DNA of 57,756 nt, from sequence record PV808483.1; one strand, written 5' to 3'. The notes below the pieces were generated by a model that saw nothing but the letters and a program-made list of their open reading frames with translations, was not told the origin of the DNA and did not search any database. A program made the position numbers and the translations under genes. The DNA is from a phage. Each line of letters opens with the position of its first letter. Position 1 is the first letter of the stretch. Below are positions 2,021 through 2,935 of this stretch, one piece after another.

Positions 2021-2935
2021 TCATCGTTTTGCCTCCCCGCCGAGTGCCACCACAAGTTGTTTAATCAGCGCCTGAAGTTCACCTGTCATTAGTACAAAAT
2101 CAGCGTCAAATCGTGCCAGAACATCTTCAAGGTCAATATCGTCATTCTGTCCGATCAGTCCATCACAGAACTTCACACGGTTTAATGTCATGCTGTCAGT
2201 TAGCGTAAACGTTACCCGCTGCTGCCAGTCCAGAGCCAGCTTTGTAACGACTTTCCCTGCTTCAATATGTGTGGCTATTTCATCACTGGTTAAATCCTGT
2301 TTTTTAACGCGTGCAACACCGCCGTCAGTCAGGATTGCTTTCAGTTCAGCAGCGTCACCCATTGTAAAACCTGTTGGCGCGTTTCCTGAACGTACCCACT
2401 CCGTTGTTGTCAGTTCAACAGGGTTTTCAGTTGTCAGTGGGACTACAGGCAGACTACCCAGGGATTTACGCAACAGCGCTAACGCATCTTCAGCCCGTTT
2501 AGCACTGGACGCATCAACCACGATTAACCCGTTAGTGATGTCGATCCATAACTGTGTACGACTGTTTTTAACGAACACCCGTGGTAACAGACTGTGTAAC
2601 ACTTCGTCTTTCAGCGCGTCTTTCTCTGTTTTCTTCAGTTTACGCGCCTGTTCAGCTTCCAGTTTGGCGATTCGCGCGTTCAGATGTTGTTTAATGACCG
2701 GGCCAGGAATAATCTTTTCCTGTTTCTGAATAGTCAGCAGATATTGCCCATTAGCCTGGTGAACCAGTGTATGATGTTGTTCAGTTGCCGGAATCCATCC
2801 AGTACGCGCCATATCCTGTGAACCGCACGGATTGAATTGAAACGCACACAGGCTGTCTTCCAGCGTTGGTAAATGGGCCATTAATTGCATCGGGTTAGTC
2901 AGGCGATAAATGATTGCGTTTTTAAAGAAGTTCAT
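2021..2935 (-). CDS. rdgC: RdgC-like recombination-associated protein
   Basis: 304 aa; N-terminus [12 protein letters not shown]...[12 protein letters not shown] and overall length match my recollection of the bacterial RdgC family (not searched). Confidence 0.6.

Follow-up and report, generated by a model that had tools for sequence, protein, structure and literature searches.

PJ16_006 (rdgC) is predicted to encode a 304 amino acid ring-forming DNA-binding protein of the RdgC family. The gene lies on the minus strand at positions 2021–2935 of the window, i.e. the whole 57,756 bp stretch of phage DNA that was analyzed, and the prediction comes from its open reading frame and from matches to Pfam, NCBIfam, PHROG 724 and the structure 2OWL. 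The interpretation slightly favored here, at a little better than an even chance, is that the gene product is a functional RdgC from a phage-borne lineage, which would clamp duplex DNA and keep host RecA off the phage DNA.

The open reading frame runs from ATG to stop codon through 304 codons at 2021–2935 (ORF listing), exactly where the first-pass annotation had placed a 304 aa protein. The two sequence signatures which that annotation named are both present: the N-terminus aligns with MLWFKNLMVYRL of E. coli RdgC, and PCGSQD aligns with PCGSQD of the E. coli protein. The Pfam RdgC profile PF04381 spans residues 3–301 of the phage protein at profile positions 2–298 of 298 (E-value = 1.8e-113; 379.2 bits, cut-off 25 bits). 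Apart from RdgC, no Pfam family, and no nuclease family among them, was matched by the protein at an E-value of 0.01 or less. PHROG 724 is matched with an E-value of 3.7e-126. The structural homologs are E. coli RdgC (2OWL; E-value = 3e-126, residues 2–304 on 2–303) and Pseudomonas aeruginosa RdgC (2OWY; E-value = 1.4e-65, residues 3–301 on 2–300). When aligned end to end with 2OWL, 198 of 305 positions are identical (65%) with three gap positions; the two proteins are similar in length (303 aa in E. coli, 304 aa in PJ16) and are collinear from the first residue to the last. The similarity to RdgC that was to be looked for in database searches is thus strongly significant. By sequence, PJ16_006 is a single-domain, full-length member of the RdgC family, and this assignment is secure.

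NCBIfam has six RdgC models (the PRK00321 group). PJ16_006 passes the equivalog NF001462 (410.8 bits, cut-off 330) and the subfamily model NF001464 (328.1 bits, cut-off 227), but narrowly misses the E. coli-type equivalog NF001460 (466.8 bits, cut-off 501). By profile score the phage protein is therefore outside the narrow group of E. coli-type chromosomal orthologs, and this fits the tree described below, in which the phage clade branches outside the RdgC proteins of Enterobacterales chromosomes.

The window is collinear with the genome of Escherichia phage vB_EcoS_PJ16 (OQ955832.1), which has the same length of 57,756 bp. There are 1,297 substitutions between the two over the first 50 kb, and positions 1027–3430 of the window are identical base for base to OQ955832.1. 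PJ16 is a 9NA-like siphovirus (Nonanavirus/Sashavirus) that originates from poultry sewage. In OQ955832.1 the locus PJ16_006 (2021–2935) already carries the label “recombination-associated protein”. About a dozen other deposited records of 9NA-like phages contain the same gene. These include BDX09P1, AVIO78A, PDP46, KarinMuster_Bas82, Solent, Sergei and SP069, as well as the Klebsiella phages Kpn BU9, VLCpiS10a and KP13-27, all with a protein identity of 78%–97%; the KarinMuster (Bas82) protein is 89% identical to the PJ16 copy. In these relatives the gene is located at the same site in the minus-strand cassette between the terminase genes, with the same conserved flanking genes and the same promoter motif, and only the small genes interleaved with them differ. 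The labels used are RdgC, recombination-associated protein or exonuclease, and the Solent record already mentions a likeness to HrdC of phage P1.

RdgC homologs are present in 507 of 50,697 phage records (~1%), among them hrdC of P1 and P7, rdgC of ICP1, and genes of many Vibrio and Pseudomonas phages. Phage rdgC genes are routinely named by homology in genome papers (e.g. PMC12315714). The identification itself thus adds nothing new, as the gene is annotated, has its own PHROG, and belongs to a kind long catalogued in phages, from P1 hrdC to later genomes; the finding is correct but ordinary. A search of the literature found no experiment on any phage RdgC, and the sole functional datum is that P1 hrdC was non-essential in a CRISPRi screen.

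The residues required for activity of the bacterial protein are defined. Briggs et al. (2010; PMC2965237) identified by mutagenesis ten residues needed for ring closure and DNA loading in E. coli RdgC. These are the gate interface (R118, F120), the hydrogen-bond network of the horseshoe interface (Q212, E218, H222, K227), and the electropositive fingertip (R97, K98, K100, K101), which is required for loading onto circular DNA. All ten are identical in PJ16 RdgC, with the numbering shifted by one. The gate residues R119 and F121 are invariant in 20 of 20 members of the phage clade, the horseshoe residues Q213, E219, H223 and K228 are likewise invariant in these 20, and the fingertip consists of R98, K99, K101 and K102. 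Taken singly, each of the ten positions is conserved in 17–20 of the 20 members, and replacements are conservative with the exception of a single R97C. The finger region (positions 76–125) displays 80% identity between PJ16 and E. coli.

Eight basic residues that line the pore are needed for binding of dsDNA (Ha et al. 2007; PMC1885664), in P. aeruginosa numbering R4, K70, R81, R122, K146, R198, R208 and R252. The equivalents in PJ16 are K5, K71, K82, K123, R147, K199, R209 and R253, i.e. all eight are lysine or arginine. The RdgC-like identity proposed in the first-pass annotation thus extends over the full length of the protein by Pfam, NCBIfam, PHROGs and PDB, with the functional residues intact. 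An AF2 monomer model has a mean pLDDT of 50.5 and a pTM of 0.38. This is due to the shallow alignment of 27 sequences, all at least 79% identical, i.e. only near-identical homologs were present. The RdgC fold of the PJ16 protein is instead deduced from the 65% identity to 2OWL.

Purifying selection on the gene is strong among 9NA-like phages. Values of dN/dS in the phage clade are 0.10–0.14 at a dS of 0.8–1.5, so that synonymous sites are near saturation, and the mean column identity among 27 clade members is 88%. The low dN/dS at near-saturated dS indicates that rdgC has been kept functional in phages over a long time.

The first-pass annotation had suggested that a phylogeny could show transfer from host to phage. 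The best 120 database relatives of the phage protein are all at least 79% identical to it, whereas chromosomal RdgC proteins (one genome per bacterial species) reach a maximum of 66%. This identity is flat, 60%–66%, over the whole order Enterobacterales. The median identity is 79% among the chromosomal Enterobacterales proteins themselves and 64% between these and the phage clade. In neighbor-joining trees the RdgC clade of 9NA-like phages is monophyletic (200 of 200 replicates in one tree, 500 of 500 in another). The chromosomal Enterobacterales proteins form a clade with every mobile copy outside (407 of 500), a position to be read with the caveat that distance trees can draw fast-evolving mobile copies towards the base. 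The 9NA-like and other mobile sequences together with the chromosomal Enterobacterales proteins split from those of Vibrio phage, Pseudomonas phage and P. aeruginosa in 475 of 500 replicates. A clade that unites the 9NA-like proteins with P1 HrdC, a lambdoid phage and four bacterial “second copies” is weak (251 of 500). Two of these four second copies were inspected and both are in replication regions of lambdoid prophages.

The base composition of rdgC is 47.2% GC (GC3 44.3%) in a phage genome of 43.5% GC. The chromosomal rdgC genes sampled from Enterobacteriaceae have 53%–57% GC, with Yersinia and Providencia lower. Recent acquisition from an E. coli or Salmonella host is rejected on the identity of 66% or less to species representatives, on GC content and on tree position. 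Phage rdgC is thus an old phage-resident lineage of enterobacterial type and not a recent host capture. Of the proposed transfer only an early event is retained: if rdgC passed from host to phage, identity, GC and tree all point to an ancient date.

As the first-pass annotation had described, rdgC is part of a reverse-strand cassette that separates the terminase genes. The cassette consists of 12 consecutive minus-strand genes (annotated at 1075–4677), of which rdgC is the fifth in map order, and is flanked by plus-strand terminase genes on both sides. The small terminase subunit gene is at 324/207–959 (+) (annotation; PHROG 51, E-value = 3e-11) and the large subunit gene at 4742–6505 (+) (annotation; PHROG 2, E-value = 5e-17); the Pfam Terminase_6N score of the latter is just under the cut-off. 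A GC-rich hairpin followed by TTTCT is located at about 1047–1074, between the ends of terS and the cassette, which converge there.

9NA-like phages have in common a minus-strand cassette that separates terS from terL, with variable content. It has three genes in Sasha and nine in 9NA, both without rdgC, and 16 in Solent and 17 in Kpn BU9, both with rdgC. Of the PJ16 cassette genes, Solent and Kpn BU9 also have 004, rdgC, 010, 011 and 012, whereas 9NA keeps only 011 and 012, and Sasha none. As rdgC is missing from Sasha and 9NA, it is an accessory and not a packaging gene. Its absence from such close relatives shows that it is not essential.

Within the cassette, rdgC belongs to a compact unit that starts with PJ16_010 and ends with PJ16_004, and there is a 4 bp overlap at every gene junction from the first to the last. 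PJ16_010 (annotated at 3472–3738, minus strand) encodes an 88 aa protein with no assigned function and with no Pfam, PHROG or PADLOC match. Its homologs are 83% (Solent) and 75% (Kpn BU9) identical and it is absent from 9NA and Sasha; thus, among the phages compared, it is conserved wherever rdgC is present. Three small genes, PJ16_009, 008 and 007 (2932–3475, minus strand), separate PJ16_010 from rdgC. These vary among relatives, and only PJ16_009 has a homolog, a weak one, in Solent. PJ16_005 (55 aa; 1857–2024, minus strand) overlaps the stop codon of rdgC by 4 bp and has no homolog in Solent or Kpn BU9.

PJ16_004 (110 aa; 1528–1860, minus strand) is the last gene of the unit and matches PHROG 1229 (E-value = 3.7e-39). 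Homologs are at the same position in Solent (90% identical) and Kpn BU9 (86%), and the gene accompanies rdgC in 9NA-like phages. Its homologs are present in 264 phage records and generally do not adjoin rdgC. Beyond the 9NA-like phages, a tight functional linkage of the two genes is unsupported; ~16 kb separate them in phages of the Vibrio D-series. Membership in a known defense system was also considered and rejected: a PADLOC scan at an E-value of 0.01 or less gave no match for rdgC or for nine other cassette proteins (PJ16_004, 005 and 007–013).

The unit is headed by a promoter-like element at 3771–3810 on the minus strand, found by a conserved 16-mer and a consensus scan. The 16-mer, TAAAATAATTCTTGAC, is at positions 3795–3810 immediately upstream of PJ16_010 and provides an A/T-rich upstream element together with the −35 hexamer. 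The element consists of the −35 sequence TTGACG (3799–3794), a 17 nt spacer and the −10 sequence TAGACT (3776–3771). There are 11 exact copies of the 16-mer in the genome, compared with about one expected by chance even with three mismatches allowed. The next copy (exact match, 1520–1535, minus strand) comes directly after PJ16_004 and marks the downstream end of the rdgC unit. The same layout of promoter, unit and promoter is present in Solent and Kpn BU9, where the motif has the same position relative to rdgC and the downstream copies are at 1807–1822 and 4061–4076, respectively.

Copies of the 16-mer are also located ahead of the replication operon (44558, 44621) and of head genes (17887–17902). 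It therefore resembles a general sigma-70 promoter of the phage and is not a marker of an early class. A generic scan of positions 850–4850 gave 12 promoter-like sites (7.1 ± 2.9 expected) and two terminator-like sites (4.0 expected), and is uninformative when taken alone; only the site at 3799–3771 gains meaning because of the conserved 16-mer. The element is probably a sigma-70-type phage promoter, as judged from its sequence.

Bacterial RdgC is a toroidal dimer with a pore of ~30 Angstrom. It grips DNA tightly without sequence specificity and with some preference for ends (PMC1885664 for E. coli). It inhibits RecA strand exchange, the RecA ATPase and LexA cleavage, chiefly by sequestering duplex DNA, and it opposes RecFOR-mediated loading of RecA in priA mutants. 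As all known residues for ring closure, loading and DNA contact are retained, the same core activity would be expected of the phage protein. RdgC identity together with DNA-clamp activity is considered virtually certain for PJ16_006. A RecA-directed role in infection, argued by analogy with the bacterial protein, falls somewhat short of an even chance. In view of the activity of bacterial RdgC, the influence of a phage copy on replication restart or host recombination that the first-pass annotation suggested is a reasonable idea.

The proposed mechanism is as follows. The gene would be expressed from the conserved sigma-70-type phage promoter within a small accessory operon. Its product, as deduced from RdgC of E. 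coli and P. aeruginosa, would be a toroidal dimer that clamps duplex DNA tightly and non-specifically and has no nuclease activity. Coating of the duplex by RdgC would make the DNA unavailable to host RecA filaments. RecA strand exchange would then be limited on replicating phage DNA, and possibly RecA-dependent LexA cleavage (SOS) as well. Recombination and concatemer formation would be left to a Gp2.5-like annealase and an exonuclease of the phage itself.

A candidate pair for such RecA-independent recombination is located at 41725–43749 on the minus strand. It consists of a Gp2.5-like SSB/annealing protein (41725–42588, minus strand; PHROG 7011, E-value = 2e-98) and an exonuclease (42604–43749, minus strand; PHROG 69, E-value = 1.5e-89), both annotated as “hypothetical protein” in OQ955832.1. 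The pair is adjoined by a T7-like DNA polymerase and a primase-helicase. With its own annealase, exonuclease, polymerase and primase-helicase, PJ16 presumably does not depend on RecA for recombination or replication. In Pseudomonas phage LKA5, rdgC adjoins the SSB and exonuclease genes, and this arrangement and the conservation of the promoter-bounded rdgC unit in three phages are counted in favor of the role.

Several observations count against a restraint on RecA. P1 hrdC was dispensable in the CRISPRi screen, and Sasha and 9NA manage without rdgC. The promoter-like motif is also ahead of head genes and gives no early-class mark. The host already makes its own RdgC, and the benefit of a second copy is not accounted for. 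In addition, Neisseria RdgC promotes a RecA-dependent process and does not inhibit it.

Of the other explanations, the least improbable, and still an unlikely one, is that the ring acts as a shield for DNA ends or duplex, protecting phage DNA from RecBCD or defense nucleases in the manner of a weak Gam. E. coli RdgC condenses DNA and has an increased affinity for DNA ends (PMC1885664), and the phage genome is linear and terminase-packaged. No recognizable anti-RecBCD gene is present in the scanned parts of the genome, and rdgC is among small accessory genes of a kind that often counter host functions. However, no evidence of a RecBCD block by RdgC was found in the literature consulted, and RdgC is made only after injection. 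KarinMuster, with its closely similar copy, is still markedly sensitive to restriction-modification and Old systems.

The conserved interfaces allow a second explanation, in which the phage subunit would form mixed dimers with host RdgC and so poison or re-target the host protein. All six interface residues are those of E. coli RdgC. The 14 fixed differences between the clade and the chromosomal proteins (W3F, R69Q, E71Q, Q125R and others) are away from the interfaces, and phage RdgC is less acidic (pI 6.4, compared with 5.3). The case is purely inferential, however; the fixed differences are mostly conservative, and no evidence points to contact or co-assembly of the phage and host proteins. 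Such interference is considered quite improbable.

A function like that of RexA, either to exclude superinfecting phages or to control a developmental switch, is very unlikely. RdgC has a structural relative in lambda RexA (PMC11077077), and such a role has been suggested for RdgC homologs next to cI in some lambdoid phages (PMC12315714). The PJ16 protein, however, is RdgC proper by sequence, as judged by its identity to E. coli RdgC, and neither an integrase nor a repressor is annotated in PJ16. No RexB-like partner was found, the cassette gave no PADLOC match, and rdgC is placed among minus-strand accessory genes outside any immunity region.

Position between terS and terL is the one feature that suggests an accessory factor for packaging, and this explanation is effectively refuted: the terS and terL genes of Sasha and 9NA are homologous and interrupted in the same layout, yet without rdgC, rdgC is on the strand opposite to the terminase genes in a cassette of variable content, and in other phages it is found in replication or early regions. 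Least credible of all is an exonuclease, as in the Pfam description and the labels of many phage records (“Putative exonuclease, RdgC”, “exonuclease recombination-associated”), since no nuclease family is matched, no nuclease activity was detectable for E. coli RdgC according to the account of Moore et al. (2003) given in PMC1885664, and the label is a relic of genetic studies in strains depleted of exonucleases.

RdgC as a clamp that restrains RecA thus remains the preferred reading, and the PJ16 protein can be compared with others of its family. PJ16 RdgC differs from E. coli RdgC in that it is encoded by a virulent-type siphovirus and not by a chromosome. It has a two-residue insertion near position 22, the 14 clade-fixed substitutions and the higher pI; its gene has the lower GC content (47%, compared with 53%–57% in Enterobacteriaceae), and it branches outside the chromosomal Enterobacterales clade that holds the E. 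coli protein.

Phage P1 HrdC is of the same family with 58% identity to PJ16 RdgC, and RdgC of the Flyfo siphovirus Tbat2_3 has 65%. P1 hrdC is under control of the C1 repressor and is in an operon with the dmt methyltransferase, whereas PJ16 rdgC has no methyltransferase neighbor. The lambdoid copies of rdgC come after the O/P replication genes, and a C-terminal FtsK-gamma domain is present in some of them; the PJ16 protein is without this extension. In the tree, P1 HrdC and the lambdoid proteins fall together with the 9NA-like clade and outside that of the chromosomal RdgC proteins, although monophyly of all mobile copies is weak, as noted above. Non-specific DNA binding as a dimer is shared by lambda RexA, the structural relative (PMC11077077).

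A broader proposal, which is doubtful, is that the RdgC proteins of enterobacterial phages, prophages and P1-type plasmid-prophages are one old mobile lineage, separate from that of the chromosomal gene and possibly specialized as a counter-host clamp that suppresses RecA filament activity. If this is true, a clamp made early would act on replicating phage DNA to damp strand invasion, induction of SOS and alarm signals that depend on RecA. One of the triggers of a Salmonella retron toxin-antitoxin system is over-expression of rdgC, and the clamp could then be what some host sentinels (retron-type systems) sense. The prophage fusions of RdgC with FtsK-gamma would represent a sequence-targeted version of the same clamp.

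KarinMuster (Bas82) is a member of the BASEL collection and can be grown on E. coli K-12 in which the O16 antigen has been restored. As its rdgC product is so close to that of PJ16, this phage allows a direct test of the reason for which a lytic phage encodes a putative RecA antagonist of its own. What the finding retains in any case is that about 1% of phage records carry RdgC, and that the copy in 9NA-like phages is intact, strongly constrained and long resident.

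Some RdgC proteins of lambdoid prophages display an FtsK-gamma domain (PF09397) at the C-terminal end (E-values = 7e-23 and 5e-22). The fused genes are at positions 2989–4131 (plus strand) of the Serratia quinivorans locus L022 and at positions 2989–4137 (plus strand) of the Pectobacterium sp. locus L073, and the RdgC of Brenneria corticis (L067) is probably a carrier of FtsK-gamma as well. FtsK-gamma is a winged-helix domain, which in FtsK reads KOPS sequences. The joining of a sequence-reading domain to a DNA-clamping ring is an unusual architecture. The fused genes have an O-like initiator gene and DNA methyltransferase genes as neighbors; as for the intervening upstream gene next to rdgC, that of L022 encodes a P-like helicase loader and that of L073 a protein without assigned function.

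PJ16_004, the last gene of the rdgC unit (positions 1528–1860, minus strand), encodes a 110 amino acid protein of phrog_1229, and 264 phage records contain a homologue. In 9NA-like phages rdgC is always followed by PJ16_004; outside of this group the homologues and rdgC are generally non-adjacent. The PHROG 4212 family has a PJ16_004-like N-terminal segment and an FtsK-gamma-like segment in one protein, and a Ruegeria phage homologue of PJ16_004 is labelled FtsK. Thus, with the RdgC fusions included, FtsK-gamma has two separate fusion partners, RdgC and the PJ16_004-like domains.

DNA methyltransferase genes are repeatedly found downstream of rdgC in temperate phages. In phage P1 (hrdC-dmt; L087, positions 65510–68676), L022 and L073, the methyltransferase gene is either adjacent to rdgC or separated from it by a single small gene, and in the Flyfo siphovirus Tbat2_3 (L088) a Dam methyltransferase gene is about 1 kb downstream. 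Unlike in these phages, the PJ16 methyltransferase genes are away from rdgC, at positions 38110–38649 and 51225–51905.

Among the chromosomal loci compared, L003 ("Vagococcus sp. WN89Y") and L032 ("Pseudomonas lundensis I31") both have a typical enterobacterial rdgC. That these group in the tree with Kosakonia and Serratia, respectively, suggests that the two genome records are mislabelled or contaminated. The window and OQ955832.1 are of equal length with no indels, and display 1,297 differing positions (window positions 1–50000 compared), which are clustered, with none within 1027–3430; in addition, 9 bases of the window are N, at 8680–8697. The window looks like the same assembly in a different version or with a different consensus.

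Several GenBank labels look open to improvement on the basis of protein matches. PJ16_074 (41725–42588, minus strand) and PJ16_075 (42604–43749, minus strand), both labelled hypothetical, are a Gp2.5-like SSB/annealing protein (E-value = 2e-98) and an exonuclease (E-value = 1.5e-89), respectively. PJ16_077 (44677–47355, plus strand) matches phage DNA helicase families, at odds with its label "type 1 site specific restriction modification protein".

The small terminase gene terS and the minus-strand cassette converge, and between their ends, at about positions 1047–1074, is a GC-rich hairpin (GCCCGG-AATTAA-CCGGGC) bordered by runs of A and of T. This hairpin is likely a bidirectional terminator, and was not picked up by the consensus terminator scan.

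The 16-mer TAAAATAATTCTTGAC, which consists of an A/T-rich upstream element and the −35 sequence TTGAC, has 11 exact copies in the window, where about one match is expected by chance even with mismatches permitted. Copies are at 1520–1535, 3795–3810, 10674–10689, 12896–12911, 14038–14053, 17572–17587, 27471–27486 and 44558–44573 on the minus strand and at 17887–17902, 50537–50552 and 52295–52310 on the plus strand; a one-mismatch copy is at 44621–44636 (minus strand). Nearly all are located at the heads of gene blocks, on both strands, and the 16-mer is also kept in the 9NA-like relatives Solent and Kpn BU9. The site is probably the standard sigma-70 promoter of the phage, and probably bounds exchangeable gene units.
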